Made by a program: the position numbers and the translations under genes. A DNA stretch of 64,000 bases. It comes from Actinomycetota bacterium. GTDB taxonomy: Bacteria > Actinomycetota > Acidimicrobiia > Spongiisociales > UBA11373. Shown piece after piece: positions 2,688 to 18,990 of this stretch. The notes under the pieces are model-generated. The model saw nothing but the letters and a program-made list of their open reading frames with translations. It had not been told where the DNA came from and did not search any database. The stretch's first letter is position 1. The number at the start of each line of letters is the position of its first letter. Location of the stretch: contig JAHJML010000174.1 of NCBI GenBank assembly GCA_018821365.1, positions 10,067 through 74,066 of the forward strand, read 5' to 3'.

Positions 2688-3201
2688 CGGAGGTCGAGGA
2701 GCGGTAGCCGGACGGGGGTAGCCGGACCTGCTCGAAGGTCACGAACGCCCCCGGGTTCACGCTGTAGACGATCTGGAGAACCTTCTTCAGTTGGCGCCTC
2801 GGCACCACGCAGAGAGCGAGGCGGACGTCGCCCTGGAGTCCCTCCCCGTTGAGGACCGTGACGGCGAAGCCTTGCTCCCTGAGCGCCGGCGCCGACTGGG
2901 GGGATTCCACCGGCGCCACGATGCGGACGATCTTGGTGCCCATCGCCAGCCATCCCTCGATGGTCACGCCGAGGTAGGTCCCGGCCCCGAATCCGGCGGC
3001 AAACCCCACCATCAACACCGGGTCGTCGAGGTTCTTGAGGACCTGGCTGACCGCGAAGACCCACGTCAAGGACTCGACGAAGCCGACCAACCCGGCCTTC
3101 CACCCGTTGCCCCTGGTCAATAGGACGATCCGGATCGTGCCGAGCGACACGTCGACGAGTCGCAGGCCGAAGATCATGAGAGCGGAGAGGAAGACATCCA
3201 T
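2677..3201 (-). CDS. DUF2179/UPF0316-family small membrane protein
   Basis: 174 aa with two N-terminal TM helices and a C-terminal domain resembling DUF2179. Convergent with the MFS gene and overlaps it by 11 nt. Confidence 0.5.
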   Translation of the reverse strand: MDVFLSALMIFGLRLVDVSLGTIRIVLLTRGNGWKAGLVGFVESLTWVFAVSQVLKNLDDPVLMVGFAAGFGAGTYLGVTIEGWLAMGTKIVRIVAPVESPQSAPALREQGFAVTVLNGEGLQGDVRLALCVVPRRQLKKVLQIVYSVNPGAFVTFEQVRLPPSGYRSSTSVRK

Positions 3202-3399
3202 GGGCGCCCGAGTGTAGAACCGCTCCGGGCCGCCACGGTCCCCCGGCCCGTCCTCGCCATGGCCGGACCGAGGTCCGCTCTGAGTGAATCCGCAGTCCGA
3301 TGCCCGCGCTAGCGTGCGGGGACGCGCCGGGGGGTCCCGGCGTCAGAGGAGGGATCGCATGCTCTCGGTGGTACCCGGTCGACCTGGAGAGGGTCGGTC

Positions 3400-5440
<2,041 letters not shown>

Positions 5441-5448
<8 letters not shown>

Positions 5449-5842
5449 GCGGGCGCGCAAGATCGCTGCTTGGGTGGTCACCCTCGGTCTGGTGGCAACC
5501 GTGGTCTGGGGCTTCCTGGCCGGCGAACCGACGGAGAGCGACCGGGTGTTCGCCCTCGGCGCCCGCATCAAGTGCCCGGTATGCCAGGGGGAGTCGATCC
5601 AGGAGTCGCCGTCGGAGACCGCCATGGCGATGCTCGACGTGGTGGCCGAGAAGGTCGAGGCCGGGCAGACCGACGAGCAGATCCTCGAGTACTTCACCGA
5701 TCGATACGGGGACGGAATCCGCCTCGATCCGCGCTTCGAGTTCCGAACGATGCTGCTGTGGCTGCTGCCGGCCGCCGCGCTGATCGGGGGCGGGTTGATG
5801 ATCTGGAGCCGGCGCCGCCGGCCGGGAGAGGAACCGTCATGA
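5441..5842 (+). CDS. ccmH: cytochrome c-type biogenesis protein CcmH
   Basis: GTG start overlaps the ccmF TGA (GTGTCTGA). N-terminal TM; the LRCxxC-type motif RIKCPVCQGESI; C-terminal TM. Confidence 0.8.
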
Positions 5843-6657
5843 CCGATAGCGACGACATCCGCCGCCGGGCCCTCGAGGAGCGGGCGCGGCTCGCCCAACA
5901 GGACATCGAAGACCTGCGGCGCCAGGTCGACGAAGGCGAACTGGAGGAGGCCGATGCTGCCGCGCTCGAGGAGCGCTACCGGTCGGACCTCGATGCCGCC
6001 CGCACGAGCCTGGCCGGCATGCCGAAGCCCCGCAAGAGCGCTCCTCCCGCCACGGCGCCCAGCGCCGCCGGCGGAGCCACCGCCGCCGGCAAACCGAACC
6101 GCATCCCTCTGATCGTCGTCATCTCCGCCGCCGCCATGGTGGTGTTGACCATCGCCATCGTGGTGATGGCCACCAGCGGCAACGACGCCGAGACCACGAC
6201 CGACTCCGCGACGCCTCAGGCCGCAACCGGATCGCTGGCGGAGATGGAGGCGGCGGTCGCTTCCCAGCCGGACAACAACACCATGCGGCTGGCCCTGGCG
6301 GGCCTGTACTTCGAATCCGGCGACTACATGAACGCCATGAACCACTACTCGAGCGTGACCGCCAACGACCCGACGCCCCAGGACGCTGCGGTCGCCAACG
6401 CCAGGATCGGTTGGATGGCCTGGGCGGCGCTCGATGACCCGGAGACCGCGCTGTCGTTCCTTGATGCGGCGATCGCGCTCGACCCCACCTACGGCGAGGC
6501 GATCCTGTGGAAGGCCGTCGTGCTCCTCTACGGGATGGACGATGGAGCTGCGGCCGCCCCTCTCTTGGAGCAGGTGCTGGCCTTCCCGGACCTGCCCGAG
6601 GAGCTCAGGCCGGACATCCAGTCCATGCTCGACGAGGCCCGAGGAGGCGGCCAATGA
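5839..6657 (+). CDS. CcmI/CycH-like TPR protein (putative apocytochrome chaperone)
   Basis: ATG overlaps the ccmH stop (ATGA). Acidic coiled-coil N-terminus, one TM (IPLIVVISAAAMVVLTIAIVVMA), then TPR-like helical repeats (LALAGLYFESGDYMNAMNHY...). Placed between ccmH and ccmG. Confidence 0.45.
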   Translation: MTDSDDIRRRALEERARLAQQDIEDLRRQVDEGELEEADAAALEERYRSDLDAARTSLAGMPKPRKSAPPATAPSAAGGATAAGKPNRIPLIVVISAAAMVVLTIAIVVMATSGNDAETTTDSATPQAATGSLAEMEAAVASQPDNNTMRLALAGLYFESGDYMNAMNHYSSVTANDPTPQDAAVANARIGWMAWAALDDPETALSFLDAAIALDPTYGEAILWKAVVLLYGMDDGAAAAPLLEQVLAFPDLPEELRPDIQSMLDEARGGGQ

Positions 6658-7235
6658 CCGATGCTCAGCTCAAGGGCCGCCGGCCGATCTTCTGGATCTC
6701 GGTCGGCGCCGGCCTGGTCGCGTTGATCCTTCTGGCGGTTGCCCTCGCCGATGGGTTCGGGCGGGATCCCCGGGAGCCCGAGAACATCGCCAACCAGGGC
6801 GCCAAGATCGACATGACCAGGGTGCTGCCGTTGCTCGATGGGACGGGCGATGTGGCCTTCTCCGAACTGGAGGGGAAGATCATCGTGATCAACTTCTGGG
6901 CCTCCTACTGCATCCCGTGCCGGGCCGAGCATGAGGTGCTGACCACCGCATCGGAGCAGTATCGGGATCAGAACGTCCAGTTCCTCGGCATCGTCTTCCA
7001 CGACGACCCGGACGCCGCCCGTGACTTCCTCGACACCCTCGGCTGGGGCGACGGGTATCTCTACGCGGAGGATCCCGGGGCGCGGGCCACCGTGGACTTC
7101 GGGGTGTGGGGGGTACCGGAGACCTACTTCGTCGATGCCACCGGCACCATCGTCGACAAGCATTACGGAGCGATCACCCGCGACGACCTCATCCCCGTGC
7201 TCGAATCCATCCTGGCAGGCGACTCGGCCGGCTGA
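6654..7235 (+). CDS. ccmG: thiol:disulfide oxidoreductase CcmG/DsbE (TlpA/ResA family thioredoxin)
   Basis: ATG overlaps the ccmI stop (ATGA). N-terminal TM anchor; thioredoxin fold with active site WASYCIPC. Confidence 0.75.
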   Translation: MTDAQLKGRRPIFWISVGAGLVALILLAVALADGFGRDPREPENIANQGAKIDMTRVLPLLDGTGDVAFSELEGKIIVINFWASYCIPCRAEHEVLTTASEQYRDQNVQFLGIVFHDDPDAARDFLDTLGWGDGYLYAEDPGARATVDFGVWGVPETYFVDATGTIVDKHYGAITRDDLIPVLESILAGDSAG

Positions 7236-7257
7236 GCGGCGGGGATCTTTCTCCCGC

Positions 7258-7276
7258 TAGGGGACTTTTGGCCCTA
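7258..7276. promoter_or_regulatory. imperfect palindrome TAGGGGAC-TTTT-GGCCCTA, 55 nt upstream of the nonahaem cytochrome start (candidate operator, site a)
   Basis: Read directly. Same motif recurs at 9989-10006 and 17426-17443 upstream of two other multihaem cytochrome genes. Confidence 0.4.
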
Positions 7277-7331
7277 CGCGAAGTGCTCCCCCAGCGGCCA
7301 GAATGACCCCGGACGCTGCTGGGGAGACTGT

Positions 7332-8456
7332 GTGAAGGCGCAAAGAACTCACGTTTGGAGAGGATGGCGTCTCGTCGTCCTCGGGTGTGGCGCCGCCGCC
7401 GCGGCGCTGGTGCTGGTCGTGACGACGGGTTCGGCTTCTGCACAGGAGGAACAGGCCCCCCAGTTCGACAGCGAGTACTGCCTCGGTTGCCACGCCAACC
7501 CGGGAATGCAGACGACGCTGCCCTCCGGCGAGGTGCTCGACCTGACCTTCGATGTCGCCGCCCACGAGGCATCCGTCCACGGCCCCTACGACATCCCGTG
7601 TGTCCTGTGCCACACCGACGTCACCGGCTTCCCCCACGAACCGCTCGACGTGGCGGACCTGCGGGTCTGGACCCTCGAGCGAAACCAATCGTGCGCCAAC
7701 TGCCACGAGGACGAGGCGGAGAGCGCCCGGGACAACGTGCACGCCGCCGCGCTCGCCACCGGGGTGCGCGAGGCGGCGGTCTGCACCGACTGCCACGACG
7801 CCCACAATGCCCGCAAGCCGGTGGCGCACACGCCGGAGGTGGCCGAGACCTGCGGTGAGTGCCACGGCGAGATCTACCAGTTGTACGAGGGATCGGTCCA
7901 CGGCGAGGCACTCGCCACCGGTAATCGCGACGTTCCCACCTGCACCGACTGCCACGGGGTGCATGACGTCGGGGGTCCCAGCCAGTCAGAGTTCCACCTG
8001 TTCTCGCCGCAGATCTGCGCCGGGTGCCACCAGGACAAGGAGTTGATGGACCGCTACGGCGTCCGGGCCGACACCTTCGACACCTACATCGCCGATTTCC
8101 ACGGTGAGACGGTGGTGCTGTTCGAGGCGCTGGCGCCGGGTCAGGAGACCAACAAGCCGGTCTGCATCGACTGCCACGGGGTCCACAACATCCAGAGCGC
8201 CGACAATCCCGACAGCCAGACGTTCAAAGACAACATCCTCGGCACCTGCCAGCGCTGTCATCCCGATGCGTCGATCAACTTCCCCTCGGCATGGCTGGGC
8301 CACTACACCCCCTCGGCCGACAACGCCCTGCTGGTGTGGCTGGCCGGTTGGTTCTACAAGATCGTCATCCCGGTGACCATCGGCGGGATGCTCGGCTATG
8401 TCGTGCTGCTGAGCTTCAGGAGCAGGCGCTCCCGCAAGGAGGCCGCCCGTGGCTGA
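7332..8456 (+). CDS. nonahaem c-type cytochrome, signal peptide plus C-terminal TM anchor
   Basis: Nine CxxCH: CLGCH, CVLCH, CANCH, CTDCH, CGECH, CTDCH, CAGCH, CIDCH, CQRCH. N-terminal signal peptide and C-terminal hydrophobic helix. GTG start with GGGGAGA RBS. Confidence 0.85.
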   Translation: MKAQRTHVWRGWRLVVLGCGAAAAALVLVVTTGSASAQEEQAPQFDSEYCLGCHANPGMQTTLPSGEVLDLTFDVAAHEASVHGPYDIPCVLCHTDVTGFPHEPLDVADLRVWTLERNQSCANCHEDEAESARDNVHAAALATGVREAAVCTDCHDAHNARKPVAHTPEVAETCGECHGEIYQLYEGSVHGEALATGNRDVPTCTDCHGVHDVGGPSQSEFHLFSPQICAGCHQDKELMDRYGVRADTFDTYIADFHGETVVLFEALAPGQETNKPVCIDCHGVHNIQSADNPDSQTFKDNILGTCQRCHPDASINFPSAWLGHYTPSADNALLVWLAGWFYKIVIPVTIGGMLGYVVLLSFRSRRSRKEAARG

Positions 8457-9888
8457 TCGCTACCGCAGGTTCAACCTCTCGGATCGCCTCGAGCACGTTG
8501 CCCAGTTGACCGCCTTCACCGCACTGGCGGTCACCGGCTTGGTGCAGCGCTACTCGGAGGCCTGGCTGTCGCGGCGCCTCATCGACCTGCTTGGTGGCAT
8601 CGAGGCCGTCCGGATCATCCACCGAATCTTCGCCACGATCCTGATGGTGGCCGTCGTCTACCACCTGGGTGCGATCGGCTACCGCAAGTTCGTGCAGCGC
8701 CGCCCCAGGGAGATGCTCCCCACCAGCGCCGACATCCGGGCGGCCGCTCATTCGATGCGGTACCTGGCCGGCCGCGAGGCCGCCCCGCCTCTTCAGGGCC
8801 GTTTCACCTGGGAGGAGAAGGTCGAGTACTTCGCCCTCGTCTGGGGGACGTTCGTGATGATCGTGAGCGGTTTCCTGCTGTGGAACCCGATCGCCACCTC
8901 CAGGCTCCTCCCCGGGCAGTTCGTCCCGGCCGCCAAGGTGTTCCACAGCGGAGAAGCCCTGCTGGCCGTGCTGGCGGTGATCGTGTGGCACATGTACCAC
9001 GTCCACATCAGGCGCTTCAACACCTCGATGTTCACCGGATACATGAGCCGCCGGGACATGGCCCACGAGCACGCCCTGGAACTCGAGGCGATCGAAGCGG
9101 GCACCGCCTTCACGCCCCCGACCGACGATGCGTCTCGCCGCCGGGCCAAGATCTATCTGCCCGCCATCACCGGCGTGGCCGCCATCTTGCTGGGCGGCAT
9201 CTACCTGTTCGTCACCTTCGAGAACACCGCCATCGCCACCATCGATCCCCCCGAGCAGGTGGCCATCTATGCGCCGGTCGAGACCACCGGGACCACCGGG
9301 GCCACCGTGGTGACCACCACGACCCTCCCGGGTGCGACGACATCGACCACGACTCCGCTGGGAGCGTGGGAGGACACCATCGAGGCGATCTTCCGCACCC
9401 AGCGCTGCACGGATTGCCACGGCAACACCATGGCGCTGGGCGGCGTCGACCTCGCCACCTACGCTGGGGTGCTGGCCGTGGTCACTCCCGGTGATCCCGA
9501 CCGGAGCCCCCTGATCGTGCTGCAGGAGAAGGGGGCCCACCCGACGGTCCTCGACGACGGGCAACTGGCGCAGGTGCGGGCTTGGATCGCCGCCGGCGCC
9601 CTCGAGGCGCTGGGTGGCACTCCCCCGACGGGGGTGCCCGGCGGTGCGCCCGGTTGGGAAGACCCGATCTCCGGCTTGCTCGCTTCGTGCGGCTCGTGCC
9701 ACGGCGCTGCCAATCCGGCGGCGGGGCTCGACCTGACCAGCTACGAGGCTGCTCTCGCGGTGATCACTCCCGGGGACCCGGACGCCTCACGGCTCTACGT
9801 GGTCCAGGCCGCCGGGGGCCACCCGGGGCAGCTCAGCGAGGCCGACCTGGCCGTCCTCAGGGAGTGGATCGCGGCAGGCGCCCCGTAG
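8449..9888 (+). CDS. dihaem b-type membrane cytochrome (HydC/FdnI / Ni-Fe hydrogenase cytochrome-b family) fused to two c-haem domains of PSCyt1 type
   Basis: GTG start overlaps the upstream stop (GTGGCTGA). Four or five TM helices with His pairs (RIIHRIF, HMYHVH). A Thr-rich linker follows, then CTDCHGNTMALGGVDLATY... and CGSCHGAANPAAGLDLTSY..., i.e. CxxCHG-(x)n-GLDL[TS]SY modules. Confidence 0.8.
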   Translation: MADRYRRFNLSDRLEHVAQLTAFTALAVTGLVQRYSEAWLSRRLIDLLGGIEAVRIIHRIFATILMVAVVYHLGAIGYRKFVQRRPREMLPTSADIRAAAHSMRYLAGREAAPPLQGRFTWEEKVEYFALVWGTFVMIVSGFLLWNPIATSRLLPGQFVPAAKVFHSGEALLAVLAVIVWHMYHVHIRRFNTSMFTGYMSRRDMAHEHALELEAIEAGTAFTPPTDDASRRRAKIYLPAITGVAAILLGGIYLFVTFENTAIATIDPPEQVAIYAPVETTGTTGATVVTTTTLPGATTSTTTPLGAWEDTIEAIFRTQRCTDCHGNTMALGGVDLATYAGVLAVVTPGDPDRSPLIVLQEKGAHPTVLDDGQLAQVRAWIAAGALEALGGTPPTGVPGGAPGWEDPISGLLASCGSCHGAANPAAGLDLTSYEAALAVITPGDPDASRLYVVQAAGGHPGQLSEADLAVLREWIAAGAP

Positions 9889-9988
9889 CAGCCGGCCGGA
9901 TCCTTCGCGGCCGGTTGGAGTGGGCATCCCGGGTGCCGCGGTGGCTTCGATCGCGGCGGTCGCGCTCCCCGTGAGGCGTCCCTGACAA

Positions 9989-10006
9989 TAGGGCCAGAGG
10001 TCCCTA
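9989..10006. promoter_or_regulatory. imperfect palindrome TAGGGCC-AGAG-GTCCCTA, 55 nt upstream of the ImcH-like gene (site c; an extra GTCCCT half-site lies immediately upstream)
   Basis: Read directly. It is the reverse complement of the arrangement at sites a and b. Confidence 0.4.
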
Positions 10007-10061
10007 TGAGCGAGCACCTCCCATCTCCTAGCGTGGGTCCAGCACAGAGGGGAGACGTGAA

Positions 10062-11666
10062 GTGAGCGATCAGACGGACGACGGCATCGTCGAGGAACCC
10101 GCCGGCACCGACGGGATGAACCAGGTCCCGCCGACCGGGGCGCCGCCCGGCAAGGACGCCGACGGCCGTTCCCCCACGAACATCTTCACTTTCCCGATGA
10201 CGGCCATCGGGGGTGGCATGGTGCTCGCCGGTGTGGTCGCCTTCTTCGTTCTGATGCTGATCGACCTGACCAGCCAGACCGAGAACCCGTATCGGGCCAT
10301 CGTCACCTGGCTGGCGATCCCGGCGGTCATCACCCTTGGTCTCGTGATCGCAGTGATTGGGATCGTCGTCCGATCCCGGATGGCCCGGCGCCGCGGGGAG
10401 AGCATCCGATTCCTGCTGCGGATCGAGCCCTCCAACCCTCGCTACATGCGCAACCTGTGGCTGTTCCTCGGGTTGGCGGCCGTCCTGATCGTCCTGGTCG
10501 CCTACGGCGGCATACGTGCCTATGAGACCACCGAATCGGTCGCCTTCTGCGGAGAGGCGTGTCACGAGGTGATGGGGCCCCAGAACACCACCTACCTCGC
10601 ATCCGCCCACGCCAGGGTCCCCTGCACCGAGTGTCACATCGGCCCGGGACGGTCCTTCTGGGTCAAGTCCAAGCTCGACGGCATCCGCCAGGTGTGGAAG
10701 ACGATGACCAACACCTTCGACCGTCCGATCGCAACCCCGGTGACCAGTCTGCGCCCCGCCCAGGAGACCTGCGAGCACTGTCACTGGCCCGAGCAGTTCT
10801 ACGGGCAGCAGTTGGTGAACCTCAGCTACTACCGGAGCGACGAGGCCAACTCGCCGTGGACGATCAGCCTGCTGGTCAACGTGGGCGGCGGGAACCCCCG
10901 CACCGGTACCGCCGAGGGCATCCATTGGCACATGATCACCAACAACACCATCGAGTACATCGCCGTGGATCGCGATCGCCAGGAGATTCCGTGGGTGCGC
11001 CTCAACCGGGAGGACGGGACCCAGGTGGTGTACGCCGATCCGGACGCCGGCATCGGCCCCGACTCCCCCGGGGTCGAGGTCCGCACCTTCGACTGCATCG
11101 ACTGCCACAACCGGCCGAGCCACACGTTCGAGCCGCCGGCGACCGCCATCAACCTCCGCATCGCCCAGGGCAGCATCTCCCGGGACCTGCCGTTCATCCG
11201 CCGGGTGGGCCTCGACCTGCTCAACGCCGAATACCAGACCACCCCGGAGGCCAACGAGGCCATCCCGGCCGGCTTGGTGGCCTTCTACGCGGCGGAGTAC
11301 CCCGACGACGTAGAGGCGTTTCGGGCGGACATCGATCGGGCGGCAGAGGCACTGGTGAAGATCTACGACGGCAACTTCTTCCCCGAGATGAAGACCGACT
11401 ACCGGGTGCGGGTGAACAACCTGAGCCACTTCACCAACGACGGCTGCTTCCGGTGCCACAACACCGACCTCGTCTCCGACCAGGGCATCGGCATCGGCAC
11501 CGCCTGCGACACCTGCCACTCGATCGTGGCGCAGGGGCCCTCGGAGGACGTCAACGAGTTGCAGAGTGACCTGGGTGGCCTGGAGTTCGAGCACCCGGTC
11601 GACATTGGCGGCGTATGGGATCGTATCAAGTGCACCCAGTGCCACACCCCCGCTCAGGGGTACTGA
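10062..11666 (+). CDS. heptahaem NapC/NirT-family c-type cytochrome with two N-terminal TM helices (ImcH-like)
   Basis: Seven CxxCH: CGEACH, CTECH, CEHCH, CIDCH, CFRCH, CDTCH, CTQCH. N-terminal TM helices; the first two haems have NapC/NirT-like spacing. GTG start, RBS AGGGGAGA. Confidence 0.8.
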   Translation: MSDQTDDGIVEEPAGTDGMNQVPPTGAPPGKDADGRSPTNIFTFPMTAIGGGMVLAGVVAFFVLMLIDLTSQTENPYRAIVTWLAIPAVITLGLVIAVIGIVVRSRMARRRGESIRFLLRIEPSNPRYMRNLWLFLGLAAVLIVLVAYGGIRAYETTESVAFCGEACHEVMGPQNTTYLASAHARVPCTECHIGPGRSFWVKSKLDGIRQVWKTMTNTFDRPIATPVTSLRPAQETCEHCHWPEQFYGQQLVNLSYYRSDEANSPWTISLLVNVGGGNPRTGTAEGIHWHMITNNTIEYIAVDRDRQEIPWVRLNREDGTQVVYADPDAGIGPDSPGVEVRTFDCIDCHNRPSHTFEPPATAINLRIAQGSISRDLPFIRRVGLDLLNAEYQTTPEANEAIPAGLVAFYAAEYPDDVEAFRADIDRAAEALVKIYDGNFFPEMKTDYRVRVNNLSHFTNDGCFRCHNTDLVSDQGIGIGTACDTCHSIVAQGPSEDVNELQSDLGGLEFEHPVDIGGVWDRIKCTQCHTPAQGY

Positions 11667-11818: not shown

Positions 11819-13912
11819 TCAGTTGTCGGGTGCCCCCTGGCGGATCCAGGCGAGGATCGCATCCACCTCGGTGGTCGGGAGGGACCCGGAGGGCGGCATG
11901 AACCCGCCTGTCCCGGTGCCGAGCAGCCATTGGCCGAGGAGGCTGTTCTCCGCATCGCCGGGGATGACCGCGGGTCCGCTGTTGCCGCTCGCCATCACCG
12001 ACTGGTACGACTCGGCCGACCATCCGCCGGACGCTCCGTGGCACGCCAGGCACTTCGACTGGAAGATGGGCAGCACGTCGCCCGAGAAGGACACCTCCGC
12101 AACCGGCCCGGGGGTGCCCGGTCCGCCCTGCAGCGAGCGGATCAACTCGACCAGTCCGGAGATCTGCTCGTCGGTGAGGATGTCCCCCCAGCCGATCATG
12201 GCGGTGGCCGGGTGGCCGAGGTCGATCGTCTCGAACAACTGGCTGTCGGAGTGGATCGCCTGCCACTCCGGAGATTGGAACGAAGGCCCGATCCCGCCCT
12301 CCCCGTCGGCGCCGTGGCATTGGGCACAGAACCCTGCGTAGATGTCGGCGACATCCACCAGCAACGGGGCCCGCTCGACCGCCGGCGGGAGCTCGACCGG
12401 AGGGTTGTCCTGCCAGGACCGGATGTAGGCGACGATCGCCCCCACCTCGTCGGCGTCCAGGGGGCCGCCGAAGGCCAGGCCGAAGGGTGACATCCCCGAG
12501 TCGGGCTGCCCCTGGGTGATGATGGCCCTGATGGTGATGTAGTCGCGGGTCACCAGGTACTGCTCGGTGCTGATCGGGCCGATCGTGAAGGATGGATCGA
12601 CCGGGCTGGCCCCTCCCTCCCCGAACTCGCCGTGGCACACCGTGCAGTGCTGCTCGAACAGGGTCTTTCCGAGCACGGCAGGCGAACCCTGGCTGGCCTC
12701 ATAGGCGTAGTCGGTCAGGGCGTCCAATTGCTCGGCGGTGAGCACGTCGCCCCAGACCGGCATCGTTTGGTGGGAACCACCCTTGACGATGATCTCGGTG
12801 GCGGCTTCCACCGACTCGGCCACCGGAACCCGGGTTCCGTGGCACACGGCGCAGTCGGCCTCGAAGAGGGCAGCACTCGAAGCGGGCGCCGTGTCGGGGG
12901 CCACCACGTAGGCGGCCAGAGCGGCGATGTCGGCATCGGGGAGGACTCCGCCCATCGCCGGCATCGTCAGATGCCCCCCACCCTTCTCGATGATCGCCAG
13001 CAACTCGTTGCGCGTTCCGGCGAACTGGGCGCTGTTGCCGTGACAGGCGGCGCAGTTGAGCACGAACAGACGGTGTCCGTCGGGTGCGATGAGGAAGTTG
13101 ACGAGGGCGGTCGCCGAACTCTCGTCGAGCGAGGGGAGGTCGAGGCCCGCGTGCGGTTCGAACTCCGAGCCGGGCTGGAGGGCCGCCCGGAGGGTGAGCG
13201 GTTGGGTGGCAGCCAGGCCGACCGCCTGGTGGCACCCCGAACAGGAGTCCTGGAACACGGCGCTGCCGTTGGGCGAGAGGACGAAGCCGACCAGGGCGTC
13301 GATCTCGTCTGAGGAAAGGTCGCCGCTCCAGGCCGGCATCCCCTCGTGGCCGCCCTGGGAGATCACGTCGCCGAGATTGACTCCGGCGGGAACGGCGATC
13401 GAGGTGCCGTGGCACCCCGAGCAGTTCTCGGTGTAGAGGAGGGCGACCGGGTCGCCGCCGGCGGCCTCGAGGGGCGGTTCCGCCGCCAGCAGCGCCTGCA
13501 CGGTGAGGCCCAGCACCCCGAGGAAGAGGAACACCACGAACCCGAGGACGATGGGACGCCCCCGGATGTTGCGGGTGCGGGATCGATCCAGCCATGGGAG
13601 TGCCGCCAGGATGAGGAGGATCGCCCCGGGCAGGATGATCACGCCGACAAACTCCAGGTTCCCCGGGAAGAACTTGAGCAACTGGAAGAGCCAGAGGAAG
13701 TACCACTCGGGCCGGGGTGTGAACGAGTCGTCGGACGGGTTGGCCTGGTCGCCCAGTTCGGCACCGATCACGGCGGAGAGCACCACCAACGCCACGAACA
13801 CCAGCAGGGAGACTATGGCGTCCTTGAACAGGGCGTTGGGGAAGAACGGGATGCCCCGCTTCTTGTCCTCCTGGTACTTCTCCAGGTAGTCACGCCTGTC
13901 CTGTTCCCGCAT
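11819..13912 (-). CDS. cytochrome b C-terminal domain (subunit IV / QcrC-like) fused to seven class-I cytochrome c domains
   Basis: N-terminus has three TM helices and the PEWY motif (PEWYFLWLFQLLKFFP) of cytochrome b / subunit IV. Then seven CxxCH (CSGCH x2, CAACH, CAVCH, CTVCH, CAQCH, CLACH), each followed about 40-60 aa later by a Met-Pro axial-ligand-like motif. Confidence 0.85.
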   Translation of the reverse strand: MREQDRRDYLEKYQEDKKRGIPFFPNALFKDAIVSLLVFVALVVLSAVIGAELGDQANPSDDSFTPRPEWYFLWLFQLLKFFPGNLEFVGVIILPGAILLILAALPWLDRSRTRNIRGRPIVLGFVVFLFLGVLGLTVQALLAAEPPLEAAGGDPVALLYTENCSGCHGTSIAVPAGVNLGDVISQGGHEGMPAWSGDLSSDEIDALVGFVLSPNGSAVFQDSCSGCHQAVGLAATQPLTLRAALQPGSEFEPHAGLDLPSLDESSATALVNFLIAPDGHRLFVLNCAACHGNSAQFAGTRNELLAIIEKGGGHLTMPAMGGVLPDADIAALAAYVVAPDTAPASSAALFEADCAVCHGTRVPVAESVEAATEIIVKGGSHQTMPVWGDVLTAEQLDALTDYAYEASQGSPAVLGKTLFEQHCTVCHGEFGEGGASPVDPSFTIGPISTEQYLVTRDYITIRAIITQGQPDSGMSPFGLAFGGPLDADEVGAIVAYIRSWQDNPPVELPPAVERAPLLVDVADIYAGFCAQCHGADGEGGIGPSFQSPEWQAIHSDSQLFETIDLGHPATAMIGWGDILTDEQISGLVELIRSLQGGPGTPGPVAEVSFSGDVLPIFQSKCLACHGASGGWSAESYQSVMASGNSGPAVIPGDAENSLLGQWLLGTGTGGFMPPSGSLPTTEVDAILAWIRQGAPDN

Positions 13913-13916
13913 ACGG

Positions 13917-14576
13917 CTACTCCCCCTTCTTGGGAGGCGCCGAGATGCCGTTGCGCACCACCAGGTAGAGGTGGAGGCCCACCAGGAGCAGCAGGATCGC
14001 CGGCAGCACCCACACGTGGATCCCGTAGAAGCGGGACAGGGTCACCGCGCTCAGGTCGTCCCCGCCCCTCGCCACCCGCAGCGCCCAGTCACCGATGAGC
14101 GGCGTCACCTCCAACATGCGGGTGCCCACCACGGTGGCCCAGTAGGCCTTCTGGTCCCAGGGAAGCAGGTACCCGGTGAACCCGAACGCCAGCGTCAGTA
14201 CCAGCAGCCCCACCCCCGACAGCCAGGTGATCTCCCGCGGGAACTTGTACGCCCCGTGGTAGATCACCCGCACCATGTGGAGCCCGACCAGCAGGACCAT
14301 GGCGCTGGCCCCCCAGTGGTGCATGCCCCGGATCAGCCACCCGGCGGTCAGGTCGTGGGAGATGAAGTCGACGGTGGCGTAGGCATCCTGGACACTGGGC
14401 ACGTAGTAGATGGTGAGGAGGATCCCGGTGATGATCTGATTGACCACCACGATCAAGGTGGCGCTGCCGAGGGTGTAGGCCCAGTTGACCTTGGGCACCT
14501 GGCGGAGGAACACCCCATCCCAGACGAGGCGCCACCCGGTTCGCTCATCCAGCCAGCCGCCGACCCGGTCGCTCAT
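13917..14576 (-). CDS. cytochrome b6 (N-terminal four-helix dihaem-b domain of a split cytochrome b)
   Basis: 219 aa with conserved His pairs in helices B and D (GMHHWGASAMV..HMVRVIYHG ... FYGIHVWVLP) and the TGYLLPWDQ motif. Confidence 0.9.
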   Translation of the reverse strand: MSDRVGGWLDERTGWRLVWDGVFLRQVPKVNWAYTLGSATLIVVVNQIITGILLTIYYVPSVQDAYATVDFISHDLTAGWLIRGMHHWGASAMVLLVGLHMVRVIYHGAYKFPREITWLSGVGLLVLTLAFGFTGYLLPWDQKAYWATVVGTRMLEVTPLIGDWALRVARGGDDLSAVTLSRFYGIHVWVLPAILLLLVGLHLYLVVRNGISAPPKKGE

Positions 14577-14577
14577 C

Positions 14578-15051
14578 TCACGCCTCCAGGCTCACGAAGA
14601 TCTGGCCGTCCTCCACCTTGACGGGGAACTCATCCAGACCCCTCGGCGGCGGGCCGGCGACCACCTGCCCGTCGACACTGAAGACGCCGTTGTGACAGGG
14701 GCAGAAGAACTCGTTCTGGTCGGCGACCCAGCGGACCCGGCACCCGAGGTGCGTGCAGACGTTGGAGAACCCCCTGAACTCGCGACCGTCGTGGGTGACG
14801 ACGTAGACGGCCACCTCCGCCTCGGTGGAGACCCATCCACTGGTCTTGGTGACCTTCGCCTTGAAGAGGGAGGGCGTTCCAATGTCGACTCGATCAGCGG
14901 CGCCGAGTACGATCCACTCCGCCTCGCCCGTCTTCTTCTTGGCCGGGCTCAGCACGTAGGCAACCCCCGGTACCGCCCAGCCGATCCCGATGGCGGCGGC
15001 AATGGCAACGGTGGCTCTACTGAGGAACTTCCGCCGGTCCATTGGTGCCAT
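14578..15051 (-). CDS. Rieske [2Fe-2S] iron-sulfur protein, Tat-exported
   Basis: Twin-arginine signal RRKFLSRATVAIAAA. Rieske boxes CTHLGC and CPCHNG. Confidence 0.9.
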   Translation of the reverse strand: MAPMDRRKFLSRATVAIAAAIGIGWAVPGVAYVLSPAKKKTGEAEWIVLGAADRVDIGTPSLFKAKVTKTSGWVSTEAEVAVYVVTHDGREFRGFSNVCTHLGCRVRWVADQNEFFCPCHNGVFSVDGQVVAGPPPRGLDEFPVKVEDGQIFVSLEA

Positions 15052-15190
15052 GGTGCTCGCCCTTCCCCGGAAACCCCGTCGTTCGGCATTCCTAGCGGAA
15101 AGCGTTCGGCGCGCCGTCCACCCGGGACGTTCGGACTCTAGCCAGCGCCTCTCACGTCCGCAGCCGTGTCGGAAAGGCGTCCGCCGGACG

Positions 15191-15223
15191 CCAAGGGGCC
15201 CGGGATGACCCCGGGCCCCTTGG
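15191..15223. terminator. GC-rich hairpin CCAAGGGGCCCGGG-atgac-CCCGGGCCCCTTGG downstream of the decahaem cytochrome gene
   Basis: 14-bp perfect stem read directly. Lies between the decahaem gene stop (15242) and the Rieske start (15051). No U-tract, as is common in high-GC genomes. Confidence 0.45.
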
Positions 15224-15241
15224 TCCTTGCGAGAGGTGCGA

Positions 15242-17362
15242 CTACGGCCGGGTGTAGCCGGTCACATCCCCACCGACGTTCTCGATCGAGTCGATCAGCA
15301 ACTGGATCACGTACTTGCCGTTGTGGGCGAATCCACCCGGATCCTTGACGGCGTACTGGTAGTTGTAGGCCGAGCCAAGCAGCGCCGGTGTCCACATGCC
15401 GAACGCCTCATCACCACTGAAGAAGTACGGATACCGGTTCGGGTCGTAGATCAGGTCCCCGAGGCCGTATGCCTCGGAATAGGCCTGGAGCGCTGCGTAG
15501 AGGTCAGCCCGGAGGGTGTCGATCTCTCCGTACAGTCCTTCGGCCGCGTCCCCGTCACCGTCGAAGTCGCCCTCGCTGATGCGGAACGCCATCGGGTCGT
15601 CGCTGCCGTGGCAGCCTGCGCACGACTCGACCTTGACCTCCAGGGTGTGGGACCCATGGCATTCGGTGCAGGTGTCGAAACCCTCGACATGGGCATTGCG
15701 ACCCGCGTACTCCTTGCCGGCGAACTGGAACCCGCCCTGCACCTCCCCTCCGAACAGGGTCGCCCCTGCTGGGAAGTAGTGCACGTTGCGGAACCGCAAA
15801 CCCTCGACGACGTCGTTGGGTCCGGCATCGCCGATGGCCGCATTGACGCTGACCGTGGACTCGCGTCCCTGGTGGCAGTTCATGCAGAGATTGCCGTCGG
15901 CGCTCCCGCTGTCGACCTCGAGCCCGCTCGGGAACTCGACTGGGCCTGCCTCGTGGCGAGTCCAGGTGGTGAAGTCGTTGTGGCAGGTCGAGCACAGGAA
16001 GCCGTTGCTGGGCTCCTGGCTGACGGTGACGCCCTCAGCGAGGAACAGCGGCAAGCCGGCTGCACTGTGGCACTTGGAGCACGACGCCGGCACCACTGCC
16101 GGGTCGTCCTCGTCCCAGTGGCGGAAGGCCTCCTCAGAGCCGGCGAAGTGCCCATGGTCGATGCGATGGGCCGCATCGACGGCGATCGGGCTGCTCAGCA
16201 CCGAGTTGAGGTCCTCGGTGGAGTCGCTCAGCAACTGGAGGATGTACTTGCCGCCGTGGGCGAACGCCCCCGGATCCTTCAAGGCCACCTGATAGTTGTA
16301 CGCCGCCCTCACGAGGCGCGGAGTCCAGGCCGGGTAGGCATTGCCGAAGTTGGCCTCGCCCTCGGTCACGGCCCCGTCGCCGTCGGTGTCGGCGAAGAAG
16401 TACGGATAGGTCAGACCGTCGTAGACAAGCCCGGTGCCCACGGTCTCGGAGGCATACGCCTGCATCGCCAGATACAGCGTGGCGGTCGCGCCCTCGATCT
16501 CGTAGTAGATGCCTTCGGCCAGGTCGCCGTCGCCGTCGTAATCGACCAGAGAGCCCATCATGCGGACGTTCTTCAGGTCGTCCGCCGAGGTCACTCCGAC
16601 GTGACACGTGGCGCATTCCTCGATCTTGAGTTCGAGGCTGTGCGGATTGTGGCAATCCACACAGGTCTCGTAACCCTCGATGTGGGTGAAGAAGGCGTCA
16701 TAGGTCCCGCCTTCGTACTGGTAGCCGCCCATCGCCTCGTTGCCGTACTTGGTGGCTGCGGCGGCAAAGTAGTGGATGTTGATGAACCCGAGATCTTCGC
16801 TGACTTCGTCGTCACCAACGCCGGCGGCGGTGATCGCCTCGTCCACCGTCACCTTGGATGCCCTGCCCTGGTGGCAGGTCATGCAACGAGCCTCTGCACC
16901 CAGGCCGGTCAGCTCGACACCGGATGGCATCGTCACGCTGTCCAGGGCCAGGGTGGCCGCGTTGTGACAGGTCGTACAGGTGATGGTCGTGTCGGGATCG
17001 TGGGCAGCGTCGACGACTCCGGCAGCGCTCCCGTCGGCGCCGACGAAGTCCTGGAAGCCGGTACCGACGTGGCACTTGGCACAGGACTCGGGCACGACCG
17101 CCGGGTCGTCCCCGTCCCAGTGTCGGAAGGCTTCGGCGTCGGCGGCATTGTGGGCAGACGCCTCCCATGCTGCGAGGAACGGGATCTCGACCGCAGGCTC
17201 CACCACCACGGGGACCGTGGTGGTGGTCGCCGGCGCCTCGGTGGTGGTCACCGGGGCGGCGGTCGTAGTCGTTCCTGCGTCGTCGCCGCTACAGGCGGCG
17301 ATGACCAGGGAGAGGGCTGCGAGCAGTGCGCCGATCGTCGACAGCCTGGATCGATGGGTCAT
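15242..17362 (-). CDS. decahaem c-type cytochrome lipoprotein with internal pentahaem duplication
   Basis: Lipobox LSLVIAACSG followed by a Thr-rich linker. Ten CxxCH: CAKCH, CTTCH, CMTCH, CVDCH, CATCH, CSKCH, CSTCH, CMNCH, CTECH, CAGCH. The two halves are clearly homologous (AFRHWDGDDPAVVPESCAKCH vs AFRHWDEDDPAVVPASCSKCH). Confidence 0.85.
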   Translation of the reverse strand: MTHRSRLSTIGALLAALSLVIAACSGDDAGTTTTAAPVTTTEAPATTTTVPVVVEPAVEIPFLAAWEASAHNAADAEAFRHWDGDDPAVVPESCAKCHVGTGFQDFVGADGSAAGVVDAAHDPDTTITCTTCHNAATLALDSVTMPSGVELTGLGAEARCMTCHQGRASKVTVDEAITAAGVGDDEVSEDLGFINIHYFAAAATKYGNEAMGGYQYEGGTYDAFFTHIEGYETCVDCHNPHSLELKIEECATCHVGVTSADDLKNVRMMGSLVDYDGDGDLAEGIYYEIEGATATLYLAMQAYASETVGTGLVYDGLTYPYFFADTDGDGAVTEGEANFGNAYPAWTPRLVRAAYNYQVALKDPGAFAHGGKYILQLLSDSTEDLNSVLSSPIAVDAAHRIDHGHFAGSEEAFRHWDEDDPAVVPASCSKCHSAAGLPLFLAEGVTVSQEPSNGFLCSTCHNDFTTWTRHEAGPVEFPSGLEVDSGSADGNLCMNCHQGRESTVSVNAAIGDAGPNDVVEGLRFRNVHYFPAGATLFGGEVQGGFQFAGKEYAGRNAHVEGFDTCTECHGSHTLEVKVESCAGCHGSDDPMAFRISEGDFDGDGDAAEGLYGEIDTLRADLYAALQAYSEAYGLGDLIYDPNRYPYFFSGDEAFGMWTPALLGSAYNYQYAVKDPGGFAHNGKYVIQLLIDSIENVGGDVTGYTRP

Positions 17363-17625: not shown

Positions 17626-18990
17626 ATGACCGTCCGTCCCCCCACTCGCCGGCCCGAAGAGCGCTTCCCGGGATTCCTCTTCACCCCCGCCAATCGTCCG
17701 TTCACATTGATCCTGGTCGTTGCCGTGGCTGTCCTGGCAGGCTATCTGCTGGTGGGAGGCGACTCGGGATCGACGGCTGCCCCCTCCTCGACCACGGTCG
17801 CCGGGCCGGCGACCAGCACCGCCGAGACGGATTCCACCGCCGGGACCACCCAGGATGCCACCACCACCTCACCGACGGTCGCTCAATCGGGAGTCACCGA
17901 GGCGGCCGACATCCCGCTGCAGGGTCTGGCGCTGGAGACCGTGGCACGGGGGTTCACCTTCCCGGTCTACGCAACCTCGCCGCCCGGCGACGGGAGGGTG
18001 TTCGTTGTGGAACGGGCCGGCCTCATCCGCATCGTCGATCCCGGCGGGAGTGTGCTGCCGAACCCCTTCCTCGACATAAGCGACCGCATCGACAGCGCCA
18101 GCGGTATCGAGTTGGGCCTCCTCGGCCTCGCCTTCCACCCTCAGTACGCCGCCAACGGGCGTTTCTTCGTCTACTACTCGGATCTGAACGCCGACTCGGT
18201 GGTCGCCGAGTTCTCGACGAGCGCCGACCCGAACCTGGCCGATCCGGATTCCGAGCAGGAGATACTGTTCGTGGATCAGGTTCGCCTCCGCCACCGCGGT
18301 GGCATGCTGCTCTTCGGACCCGACGGCTACCTCTACATCGGCCTCGGCGACGGCACCGACCACAACGTGAACCCGCAGAACCTCGAGACCCTGCCGGGCA
18401 GCATCCTCCGCATCGACATCGACGGCGGGGATCCCTATGCGATCCCCGCCACCAACCCCTTCGCATCGGCCGAGGGCAGGCCGGAGATCTGGGCGTACGG
18501 GTTCCGCAATCCGTGGCGGTTCTCCATCGACCCCGTGAGCGGCCGCCTCTACGTCGGAGATGTCGGTGAGGAGTCGTGGGAGGAGATCGATTCCGTCGCT
18601 CTCTCCAACTCGGGGAGCAACTTCGGGTGGCCGCTCATGGAGGGGTCCACCTGCTTCACCGACGCCGAGTGCGGGAGCCGGACCGATCTGGTCCGGCCGA
18701 TCCTGCAGTACCCCCACGAAGGAGACCAGTGCGCGGTCACCGGCGGCTACGTCTACCGGGGGTCGGCGATCCCCGAGATGGTGGGGCACTACTTCTACGC
18801 CGACTGGTGCGCCGGGTGGATCCATTCGTTCCTCTACGACGGCGAGAACGTCACGCTGCCCCAGGATTGGTCGGTCTCGATCGGAACCGACCACGGGTCG
18901 ATCGCCTCGTTCGGCCTCGATGGTGCCGGTGAGTTGCTGGTGGTCACTTCCGACACCGGTGACATCTTCCGGGTGGTCGCGGCCCGTTGA
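17626..18990 (+). CDS. PQQ-dependent sugar (glucose/sorbosone) dehydrogenase family beta-propeller, membrane-anchored
   Basis: N-terminal TM, Ser/Thr-rich linker, then a sGDH-like propeller (GFTFPVYATSPPGDGRVFVVERAGLIRIV..., GFRNPWRFSID). Confidence 0.7.
   Translation: MTVRPPTRRPEERFPGFLFTPANRPFTLILVVAVAVLAGYLLVGGDSGSTAAPSSTTVAGPATSTAETDSTAGTTQDATTTSPTVAQSGVTEAADIPLQGLALETVARGFTFPVYATSPPGDGRVFVVERAGLIRIVDPGGSVLPNPFLDISDRIDSASGIELGLLGLAFHPQYAANGRFFVYYSDLNADSVVAEFSTSADPNLADPDSEQEILFVDQVRLRHRGGMLLFGPDGYLYIGLGDGTDHNVNPQNLETLPGSILRIDIDGGDPYAIPATNPFASAEGRPEIWAYGFRNPWRFSIDPVSGRLYVGDVGEESWEEIDSVALSNSGSNFGWPLMEGSTCFTDAECGSRTDLVRPILQYPHEGDQCAVTGGYVYRGSAIPEMVGHYFYADWCAGWIHSFLYDGENVTLPQDWSVSIGTDHGSIASFGLDGAGELLVVTSDTGDIFRVVAAR

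Follow-up and report, generated by a model that had tools for sequence, protein, structure and literature searches.

A CbcL-type bc cytochrome apparently divided between two overlapping genes in an Acidimicrobiia genome

Two overlapping genes in the window (the whole stretch of DNA analysed, 64,000 nucleotides from an Acidimicrobiia genome) appear from their sequences to encode a CbcL-type module in two polypeptides. They are a nonahaem cytochrome c (gene 1, 7332..8456, 374 amino acids) and a dihaem cytochrome b with two tethered c-haem modules (gene 2, 8449..9888, 479 amino acids), both, with all their features, on the forward strand. The pair is probably a 'bc' cytochrome of the cytoplasmic membrane acting as a menaquinone-multihaem oxidoreductase, most likely as a menaquinol oxidase which exports electrons. 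The observations concern the gene structure, the cofactor-binding motifs (which give putative haem numbers and ligands), the fold and topology, the resemblance to CbcL-type fusions and the constant pairing of the two genes; that the proteins form a complex, use menaquinone, export electrons and pass them to particular partners is inferred, as is the role of the tethered modules. Both ORFs had been proposed in a first-pass annotation of the DNA, and both are present.

The GTG start codon of gene 1 is preceded, at a distance of 5 nt, by a Shine-Dalgarno-like GGGGAG (7321..7326), read directly from the sequence. The predicted protein is 100 % identical to MBU1226884.1 and matches Pfam multihaem families. 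The N-terminus is signal-like (aa 1-37, with a hydrophobic segment at residues 11-37) and is followed by nine CxxCH motifs, identified by motif scan at residues 50, 90, 121, 151, 174, 204, 229, 278 and 306, and a C-terminal transmembrane anchor (aa ~333-363, nt ~8328-8420) followed by a basic cytoplasmic tail. The haem domain is placed outside the membrane, between the signal-like segment and the anchor, in agreement with the secreted, C-terminally anchored nonahaem cytochrome described in the first-pass annotation. The nine CxxCH motifs and nine further histidines are invariant in 68 homologues, and exactly nine CxxCH motifs are present in 82 of the 87 upstream genes of related gene pairs, so the haem motifs of gene 1 are not there by chance. 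Its anchor helix contains no conserved histidine. A Foldseek comparison of the gene 1 model with the PDB gave nothing significant, the top match being MtrA (E 0.02), followed by HAO-type proteins, and the multihaem matches from a phmmer search of the PDB were all weak.

The GTG at 8449, which is the earliest start codon in the reading frame of gene 2, precedes the TGA of gene 1 (8454-8456), and the two genes overlap by 8 nt: GTGGCTGA. A Shine-Dalgarno sequence, AAGGAGG (8436..8442), is located inside gene 1 at its 3' end and precedes this GTG by 6 nt, an arrangement consistent with the translational coupling suggested earlier. The NCBI call for the corresponding MAG protein, MBU1226883.1, also has 479 amino acids. 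Promoter and terminator scans over 7100-10150 found none. A 7-bp GC hairpin without a T-run is present 3' of gene 2 (9892-9914) and was not called a terminator.

Residues 1-225 of gene 2 (8449..9123) correspond to a four-helix dihaem cytochrome b domain of the FdnI fold (PF01292, 53.2 bits, cut-off 30.1). The four haem-ligand histidines of FdnI align with H16, H58, H166 and H181, in line with the His pairs first read in this domain; H16/H181 are the putative ligands of a haem on the cytoplasmic side and H58/H166 those of the outer haem. A conserved loop, QGRFTWEEKVEY (aa 116-127), is found at the position of the FdnI quinone site, and both the loop and all four b-haem ligands are invariant among the relatives of gene 2. 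A fifth transmembrane helix follows (aa 234-256, 9148..9216; helix 227-264 in the AF2 model), which returns the chain to the outer face as judged from hydropathy, a positive-inside charge count and the AF2 model. The Thr/Pro-rich linker behind it (aa 267-301, 9247..9351), noted as Thr-rich in the first reading, is predicted to be disordered (pLDDT < 50). The AF2 model of gene 2 had a pTM of 0.56, and the arrangement of its domains relative to each other is uncertain.

A domain of this kind could also belong to a formate dehydrogenase or hydrogenase as its gamma (cytochrome b) subunit, with gene 1 unrelated to it. Many homologues are labelled 'formate dehydrogenase gamma subunit' by JGI, FdnI was the top structural match, and the gamma subunit model TIGR01583 gave 60.4 bits with gene 2. 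This score is, however, far under the cut-off of 115.85, the scores of the NCBIfam FdnI models being under their cut-offs, and gene 2 matched the CbcL-type b-domain with about 86 bits (summed) compared to 55 bits for FdnI. The window genes covered by a Pfam scan included none for a molybdopterin, Fe-S or Ni-Fe subunit, whereas a nonahaem cytochrome is encoded directly upstream of gene 2 in 78 of the 80 best-matching loci, the other two having no upstream DNA, and proteins in which the c and b parts are fused exist. It is thus hardly conceivable that gene 2 is such a gamma subunit.

The CbcL of Geobacter connects the quinone pool with extracellular electron carriers. Fused homologues support the assignment of the pair as a CbcL-type module. 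CbcL has nine N-terminal bis-His c-haems and six transmembrane helices in 619 amino acids (PMC9129911, PMC6295460, bioRxiv 10.1101/2021.04.15.440034). Both halves of the pair are collinear with a fused CbcL homologue, found at locus L081, at about 30-35 % identity, and the split point falls in the cytoplasmic linker. In tblastn comparisons gene 1 matched the c-domain of this homologue (30 % identity over 262 amino acids, E 3e-23) and gene 2 matched it in two collinear pieces (31-33 % identity, E 6e-19), while the family profiles matched it in the same order, with 70.9 + 11.8 bits and then 34.2 + 51.7 bits. L081 is frameshift-ridden and was compared frame by frame, not as a clean full-length protein, but the c and b parts are fused in it, since a single uninterrupted ORF (2998-3957) spans haems 6-8, the first transmembrane helix and the first two b-helices. 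It was called a CbcL homologue by way of machine-read (OCR) fragments from the supplement of PMC9129911, and GSU0274 itself was compared by its published features. The OCR fragments were garbled, with identical strings for every species; they matched gene 2 weakly (z 5.7 for one fragment), gave 7.4 bits with the family profile (at most 1.0 in 300 shuffles) and retrieved three short proteins when used as a database query. The conclusion rests instead on L081 and the fused relatives.

Among the latter, P0292 is a single chain of 641 amino acids with 50 % identity to gene 1 and 49 % to gene 2, and its nine CxxCH motifs are at nearly the same positions as those of gene 1. Two further nine-haem c-b fusions matching both genes (P0370 and P0385) were found in an exhaustive search. 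By hydropathy and the AF2 models, the c domain is followed by six transmembrane helices, the single anchor of gene 1 plus five from gene 2. CbcL, MtoC and MtrH are single polypeptides, whereas the pair consists of two ORFs with an internal ribosome-binding site, and separate c and b genes are likewise present in 78 of the 80 related loci. The collinear matches to L081, the fusions of about 50 % identity and the helix total of 1 + 5 bear out the earlier view that the pair reproduces the CbcL architecture in two proteins, and the motifs and the ligand alignment are consistent with the 9 + 2 c haems and 2 b haems then counted.

The C-terminal part of gene 2 contains two c-haem modules (module 1, 9361..9606, CTDCH at aa 320; module 2, 9649..9885, CGSCH at aa 414). 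PSCyt1 (PF07635) matched gene 2 with 56.3 bits in two stretches (cut-off 22), and each module alone passed the cut-off (29.0 and 34.8 bits, respectively), whereas class I cytochrome c models remained below their own cut-offs. The first-pass annotation had identified the modules as PSCyt1 and not as ordinary class I cytochrome c, and to this extent it was right, but only positions 1-43 of the 59 in the profile are covered, both modules stopping at position 43, and the canonical PSCyt1 methionine is replaced by an invariant histidine in a G-x-H-P context. These histidines, H364 in module 1 and H458 in module 2, are likely the distal haem ligands. In module 1, W307, C320, C323, H324, H364, G383 and A384 are invariant. 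Another gene of the window (11819-13912) ends in a PSCyt1 domain in which positions 1-59 are matched and Met672 lies within GFMPP.

PSCyt1 domains usually occur fused with PSD1/PSCyt2-type domains; the modules of gene 2 are instead joined to a membrane cytochrome b via a disordered tether. Their nearest solved structure is that of FoxE (PDB 5MAB), a dihaem Fe(II) oxidase, and the layout CxxCHG...GLDL.(S/T)Y...PG(D/K)P..S...WI.AGA is shared by PSCyt1, FoxE and the modules. The haems of FoxE have His/Met ligation (PMC10654088), in contrast to the His/His ligation predicted for gene 2. The number of c-haem modules in the gene 2 relatives of the 80 best-matching loci varies from 0 to 5, and a paralogue of 230 amino acids without modules keeps its own nonahaem partner; the tethered modules are therefore accessory. 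More broadly, the split family presents the 'Planctomycete' cytochrome domain as a mono-haem module of bacteria in general, one subtype of which is His-ligated.

At least 576 species-level genomes carry relatives of gene 2 with the PSCyt1 fusion, and most of these genomes belong to Chloroflexota (Anaerolineae) and Acidimicrobiia. The GC3 of the pair is the same as that of the flanking genes. The PSCyt1 domain had at first been considered unexpected in a genome of this type, which is contradicted by the occurrence of the same fusion in so many genomes, by the PSCyt1 domain in the neighbouring gene and by the GC3. Transfer from Planctomycetes was also considered, and was rejected on taxonomic distribution and composition. 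Measured in 87 pairs, the distance from the gene 1 stop codon to the codon for the conserved Arg7 of gene 2 ranges from -17 to +314 nt, with a median of 35. Division into two genes is general in the lineage and no peculiarity of this locus. In a systematic survey of 2018, CbcL-family proteins are absent from the lists for Actinobacteria and Chloroflexi, the groups to which the hosts of the pair belong (PMC6295460). Haem motifs and transmembrane helices were required within one protein in that survey (PMC6295460), and the split form would have been missed for this reason.

The surroundings of the pair in the window include ccm haem-maturation genes, an ImcH-like gene, a decahaem cytochrome and a Rieske/cytochrome b complex. 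The ImcH-like gene 3 (10062..11666, forward strand) codes for three N-terminal transmembrane helices, one CX3CH and six CXXCH motifs, and its matches to NrfH/NapC profiles are under the cut-off; an ImcH-like gene adjoins gene 2 in 45 of the 80 loci. Linkage to a Rieske/cytochrome b operon was seen in 24 of the 80, often co-oriented directly downstream, and in several Anaerolineae (for example L030 and L080) the order gene 1, gene 2, gene 3, Rieske, b6 and subunit IV/multi-c is co-directional with small gaps or none. The subunit IV fusion has six class-I c domains and a PSCyt1 domain. Such tight gene order and the composition of this fusion would fit an accessory electron entry or exit arm of a Rieske/b supercomplex, in which the tethered modules dock on the multi-c subunit, itself ending in PSCyt1, and the pair has no physiologically important quinone chemistry of its own. 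However, no more than 21-24 of the 80 loci have Rieske/b genes less than 6 kb away, and these genes are on the opposite strand to the pair in the window and are not found near the pair in a cultured carrier, Bellilinea caldifistulae GOMI-1. The invariant quinone-site loop and the four b-haem ligands also argue for quinone chemistry of the pair itself, and the role of a mere arm is quite improbable. An unsystematic look at the locus noticed no sigma-54 or BccR-type regulator. Literature searches yielded generalities on multihaem cytochromes in Anaerolineae and studies of Ardenticatena, and no paper among those found described the pair or its cluster in Anaerolineae or Acidimicrobiia.

In the preferred reading, that of a CbcL-type menaquinol oxidase, the two proteins would form one complex, in which the four-helix domain of gene 2 would hold two b-haems stacked across the membrane, with the quinone site on the cytoplasmic side by analogy with FdnI. 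Gene 1 would be exported, its C-terminal helix keeping it next to gene 2 as a presumed topological equivalent of FdnH and of the first helix of CbcL, and its nine bis-His, low-potential haems would extend the wire on the outer face. The C-terminus of gene 2, put outside by the fifth helix, would bear the two His/His mono-haem modules on a flexible Thr-rich tether, most likely as a mobile branch for electron input or output; candidate partner cytochromes are the decahaem encoded nearby, the ImcH-like protein and the c-subunit of the Rieske/b complex. The direction would most likely be that of CbcL, menaquinol oxidation and electron export, with protons released in the cytoplasm and little energy saved, which would fit low-potential acceptors.

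The same complex may also operate in reverse, as an MtoC-like quinone reductase for electron uptake, in which menaquinone at the cytoplasmic face would be reduced by low-potential electrons that arrive from outside (from reduced humics, minerals, a partner cell or periplasmic donors) by way of the c-haems and then the b-haems. An FdnI-type redox loop would then build proton-motive force and the adjacent Rieske/b complex would re-oxidise the quinol. The FdnI fold, which gene 2 matches, works in the quinone-reducing direction in formate dehydrogenase-N, and both the linked Rieske/b operons and the resemblance of the modules to an Fe(II) oxidase would be compatible with uptake. Homologues of CbcL, MtoC and MtrH come from Fe(III) reducers as well as from Fe(II) oxidisers, and no sequence feature tells the two apart, MtoC being a CbcL relative that occurs in Fe(II) oxidisers (PMC6295460). 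On the other hand, CbcL, the relative that has been characterised, acts as a quinol oxidase, and all eleven c-haems of the pair are apparently His/His, unlike the His/Met haems of FoxE, implying low potentials and a poor fit for electrons from Fe(II). Uptake is considered the unlikely direction, but one to be taken seriously.

Sediments, aquifers, sludge and bioelectrochemical reactors harbour abundant Anaerolineae and Acidimicrobiia, both rich in multihaem cytochromes, and the split pair bears on how their quinone pool is wired to these cytochromes. A CbcL-type module is now placed in all the species carrying the fusion, often beside an ImcH-type gene, and misleading labels ('hypothetical protein', 'formate dehydrogenase gamma subunit', 'NapC/NirT family', 'BatA domain') are corrected. 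Many carriers, such as B. caldifistulae, have been described as fermenters, which counts against the main reading, and a role in respiration or extracellular electron transfer would be putative in them. The cultured strain makes the idea testable. A bolder and rather doubtful extension is that the pair is the main unrecognised gateway between quinone and the outside in the two groups, which probably have no outer membrane, its 0-5 modules forming a 'haem fishing line' through the wall on a Thr-rich linker that is probably glycosylated, and that with the ImcH-like protein it makes up a Geobacter-like pair of quinol oxidases. If so, an adjustable tether of PSCyt1/FoxE-like His/His modules would carry electrons to surface cytochromes, minerals or partner cells, and the pair and the ImcH-like protein would be potential-dependent quinol oxidases in abundant sediment and bioreactor lineages.

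The closest known systems share parts of this architecture. FdnH was reportedly described by Jormakka et al. in 2002 as an outer-face electron wire held by a single C-terminal helix. In FdnH-FdnI of E. coli formate dehydrogenase-N (PDB 1KQF) this wire is encoded directly upstream of the cytochrome b and has one C-terminal anchor helix, as here, but it consists of four [4Fe-4S] clusters instead of nine c-haems; the pair lacks a catalytic molybdoenzyme, and gene 2 adds the fifth helix and the tethered c-haems.

CbcBA (GSU0593-0594) of G. sulfurreducens is also encoded by two genes, for a C-terminally anchored multihaem cytochrome c and a separate dihaem b subunit, and was set apart from the pair by its published description (bioRxiv 10.1101/2021.04.15.440034). 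CbcA has seven haems, compared to nine in gene 1, and its anchor reportedly supplies the fourth b-haem histidine, CbcB having three, whereas all four are in gene 2. CbcB is thiosulfate-reductase-like and reportedly has no sequence homology to CbcL (bioRxiv 10.1101/2021.04.15.440034).

CbcL of Geobacter sulfurreducens (GSU0274) has nine bis-His c-haems on the outer face followed by a dihaem b domain of the FdnI/HydC type, six transmembrane helices in total, as in genes 1 and 2 together, and the same order of c-domain, anchor helix, cytoplasmic linker, 'YRRF..H' motif and b-helices. The identity of the pair to L081 is in the range published for CbcL and MtoC/MtrH (about 35 %, PMC6295460), and L081 has an ImcH-like gene downstream of the CbcL homologue, as the pair does, with 39 % identity to gene 3. 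The first helix of CbcL contains one histidine, a fifth candidate, with no counterpart in the anchor of gene 1. CbcL is one polypeptide and the pair is two, and the L081 homologue ends a few residues after its last helix, whereas the chain of gene 2 runs on into a Thr-rich tether that bears two mono-haem modules.

The source of the window, whose GC content is about 68%, is the MAG of an uncultured "Actinobacteria bacterium". NCBI lists proteins identical to those of genes 1 and 2 as MBU1226884.1 and MBU1226883.1, respectively, both on an 89-kb contig. Their gene structure, cofactor-binding motifs, fold, topology, homology and conserved pairing were computed, and the haem numbers and ligands given here are those suggested by the motifs. 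Gene 1 (7332-8456, + strand) is an ORF of 374 amino acids whose GTG start codon lies 5 nt 3' of GGGGAG. The protein has a hydrophobic, signal-like N-terminus, nine CxxCH motifs (at 50, 90, 121, 151, 174, 204, 229, 278 and 306) and a single hydrophobic C-terminal helix (about 333-363) with the basic tail RSRRSRKEAARG behind it, in agreement with the first-pass annotation, which had described a secreted nonahaem cytochrome c with a C-terminal transmembrane (TM) anchor. All nine motifs are invariant in an alignment of 68 homologues, as are exactly nine further histidines (83, 102, 137, 158, 190, 211, 257, 285 and 324), a pattern that points to nine bis-His, low-potential haems.

Gene 2 (8449-9888, + strand, 479 amino acids) begins at the GTG at 8449, the sole start codon 5' of its conserved residues. 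This GTG lies 6 nt 3' of AAGGAGG, and the resulting 8-nt overlap with the TGA of gene 1, recognized from the start, is consistent with translational coupling. Four nucleotides past the gene 2 stop there is a perfect 7-bp GC hairpin (9892-9914, + strand; CCGGCCG...CGGCCGG, 9-nt loop) with no T-run after it, and gene 3, an ImcH-like cytochrome gene, follows after a 173-nt gap.

The gene 2 protein matches PF01292 (53.2 bits, cut-off 30.1) and, in two stretches, PF07635 PSCyt1 (56.3 bits, cut-off 22). Its sole PDB sequence match is FdnI of the E. coli formate dehydrogenase-N (E 3.4e-7), whose haem ligands H18, H57, H155 and H169 align with H16, H58, H166 and H181, as expected of the N-terminal dihaem-b domain that had been proposed. 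FdnI was also the sole Foldseek match (TM 0.80) of an AlphaFold2 model built on 81 homologues (mean pLDDT 86). The annotation "formate dehydrogenase gamma subunit" was rejected, because the TIGR01583 score is under the curated cut-off and catalytic partner genes were not found nearby. By hydropathy and charge counts the chain has five helices and an inside N-terminus; helix five (234-256) puts the acidic C-terminal 223 residues outside, the location needed for c-haem attachment. The anticipated Thr-rich linker corresponds to residues 267-301, which are Thr/Pro-rich and disordered in the model. Six histidines (H58, H72, H166, H181, H186 and H208) do not vary in the family, nor does much of the cytoplasmic loop QGRFTWEEKVEY. 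The counterpart of this loop in the FdnI alignment is GKYNAGQK, which lines the menaquinone/HQNO site (Jormakka et al. 2002).

CbcL of Geobacter sulfurreducens has 619 amino acids, with nine N-terminal c-haems, all bis-His, in a periplasmic domain (30-279) followed by six TM helices; its candidate b-haem histidines are in helices 1, 2 and 3, with two more in helix 5 (PMC9129911; PMC6295460; bioRxiv 10.1101/2021.04.15.440034). CbcL itself was known by description, and the related protein fragment P0255 and its locus L081 (686-kb ENA contig), reached via garbled machine-read fragments of a supplementary alignment, served as its stand-in. In the frameshift-ridden L081 gene (2635-4511), the signal peptide and nine CxxCH are followed by a TM helix bearing a His, a cytoplasmic linker, the motif HKQYRRF..H and an FdnI-like domain, and the coding sequence stops a few residues past the sixth helix. 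Gene 1 is 30% identical to its c-domain over 262 amino acids (E 3e-23), and gene 2 matches its b-domain in two collinear pieces (31-33% identity, E 6e-19) and the P0255 fragment with 35% identity over 86 amino acids (E 1e-13). The two family profiles match L081 in the same order as the genes, that of gene 2 scoring about 86 bits summed on the b-domain versus 55 bits on FdnI, and the gene boundary falls in the linker that joins helix 1 to the YRRF motif on the cytoplasmic side. An exhaustive search of 1.84 billion representatives found 2,871 relatives, 228 of them at E <= 1e-30. Among these are single-chain fusions, such as P0292 (641 amino acids; nine CxxCH at 51, 89, 120, 150, 173, 204, 229, 278 and 306), which is 50% identical to gene 1 and 49% to gene 2, the further 9-haem fusions P0370 and P0385, and P0320; fused and split forms thus coexist in one family. 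The first-pass view of a CbcL module divided over two genes is upheld by this collinearity and by the fusions.

The PSCyt1 assignment of the two C-terminal modules of gene 2 survived its refutation test: in isolation they score 29.0 and 34.8 bits, each above the threshold, and class-I cytochrome c models remained below their own thresholds in the profile search. The matches span only positions 1-43 of the 59 in the profile. The canonical PSCyt1 domain in the window, at the end of the gene 11819-13912, covers positions 1-59 and contains Met672 (GFMPP). This Met-bearing region is G-x-H-P in the gene 2 family, with the invariant H364 and H458 kept in at least 90% of sequences, and the family alignment has no conserved Met in the modules, suggesting His/His ligation. 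Module number varies among the relatives (none in 13, one in 60, two in 8, three in 7, four in 2 and five in 1). Of the 13 without modules, two are truncated at contig ends, and the other 11 are a short paralogue of about 230 amino acids that has a nonahaem partner of its own. Since the nonahaem protein and b subunit would then work together without them, the modules are probably an accessory branch. In some Anaerolineae (L008, L035, L040, L044, L050, L054, L062, L066, L073 and L074; e.g. L044 2603-4527) a second pair occurs in tandem, consisting of a nonahaem cytochrome and an FdnI-like b subunit of about 230 amino acids without the fifth helix or a c module; such a pair amounts to a minimal split CbcL. 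The fused P0320 (780 amino acids) has four different c-haems, with CxxCH of non-PSCyt1 type, added after the last helix in its post-membrane tail, which makes the C-terminus beyond this helix look like a hot spot for haem-domain addition.

When one genome per GTDB species was scanned, gene 2 relatives were found in at least 576 genomes. Most of the best 80 come from Anaerolineae or other Chloroflexota; Acidimicrobiia/Actinomycetota come next, and one is a Planctomycetota MAG. PSCyt1 had been considered unexpected in an actinobacterial genome; this did not hold, as the distribution, the neighbours and the GC3 values indicate that it is native and common in the lineage. A gene 1 homologue is directly upstream in 78 of the 80 loci, the other two having no upstream DNA. 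Among 87 pairs, the distance from the gene 1 stop to the conserved Arg7 codon is -17 to +314 nt (median 35), and gene 1 has exactly nine CxxCH in 82. The best 80 include the cultured Bellilinea caldifistulae GOMI-1, which is described as fermentative and is a possible experimental model. Its locus (L071, 2192-7158) contains a decahaem-nonahaem-cytochrome b/PSCyt1 trio, then an ArsR-type regulator and NuoB/CD/I-like genes.

The island extends from ccmF (3400) to the decahaem gene (17362), the rest of the window being housekeeping. System I cytochrome c maturation genes (3400-7235, + strand; ccmF, ccmH, a CcmI-like TPR gene and a thioredoxin-like CcmG/ResA gene) adjoin gene 1 directly upstream, a linkage seen in about 12-16 of the 80 loci. 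Gene 3 (10062-11666, + strand), named "BatA domain-containing protein" at NCBI, encodes an NrfH/NapC-like protein with three TM helices at the N-terminus, six CXXCH and one CX3CH (CGEACH), which is the published architecture of ImcH, the Geobacter high-potential quinol oxidase; a 39%-identical homologue is just 3' of the CbcL homologue in L081. A convergent operon (11819-17362, - strand) encodes a 706-amino-acid decahaem cytochrome, a Rieske protein, cytochrome b6 and a PetD-like subunit-IV fusion with six class-I cytochrome c domains and one canonical (Met) PSCyt1 domain. A gene 3 homologue lies no more than 6 kb from the pair in 45 of the 80 loci (most often directly downstream of gene 2). 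In the same range, 28 loci have a decahaem of about 700 amino acids, 21-24 the Rieske/cytochrome b6/subunit IV-multi-c set (often co-directional) and 16 ccmF. A GSDH-type (soluble PQQ-dependent dehydrogenase-like) beta-propeller gene (17626-18990, + strand) adjoins the decahaem gene. In the foxEYZ operon the FoxE cytochrome is paired with a PQQ protein; the likeness is probably a coincidence.

The architecture of the pair is solid, and its physiological role is proposed from sequence. The two products would form a complex in which the gene 1 anchor takes the role of the FdnH anchor or the first CbcL helix. Gene 2 would oxidise menaquinol at its cytoplasmic-side site and send the electrons across the membrane, via the two b-haems, to the nine-haem wire; the tethered His/His modules may hand them on to partner cytochromes on the outside. 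A serious rival is reverse flow, in which quinone would be reduced through a redox loop of the FdnI kind; relatives of CbcL, MtoC among them, are found in Fe(II) oxidisers and have no distinguishing sequence feature (PMC6295460). With menaquinol oxidation, the geometry would release protons inside and conserve little energy, as argued for CbcL (bioRxiv 10.1101/2022.08.31.506072), and would thus suit low-potential acceptors.

No published account of this gene pair or cluster was found in a literature search, and a 2018 survey reported zero CbcL homologues in the Chloroflexota and Acidimicrobiia phyla (PMC6295460). New relative to published work are the split form as the rule in these two groups, the variable tethered C-terminal array of predicted His-ligated PSCyt1/FoxE-like modules on the b subunit, and the regular linkage of the pair with an ImcH-like gene and a Rieske/b complex. 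The pair is homologous to CbcL and its relatives MtoC and MtrH and would work like a member of this group, but is not a single polypeptide. It shares the two-gene arrangement with CbcBA, another bc-cytochrome of the same Geobacter, but differs from it in haem number and in the placing of the b-haem ligands.
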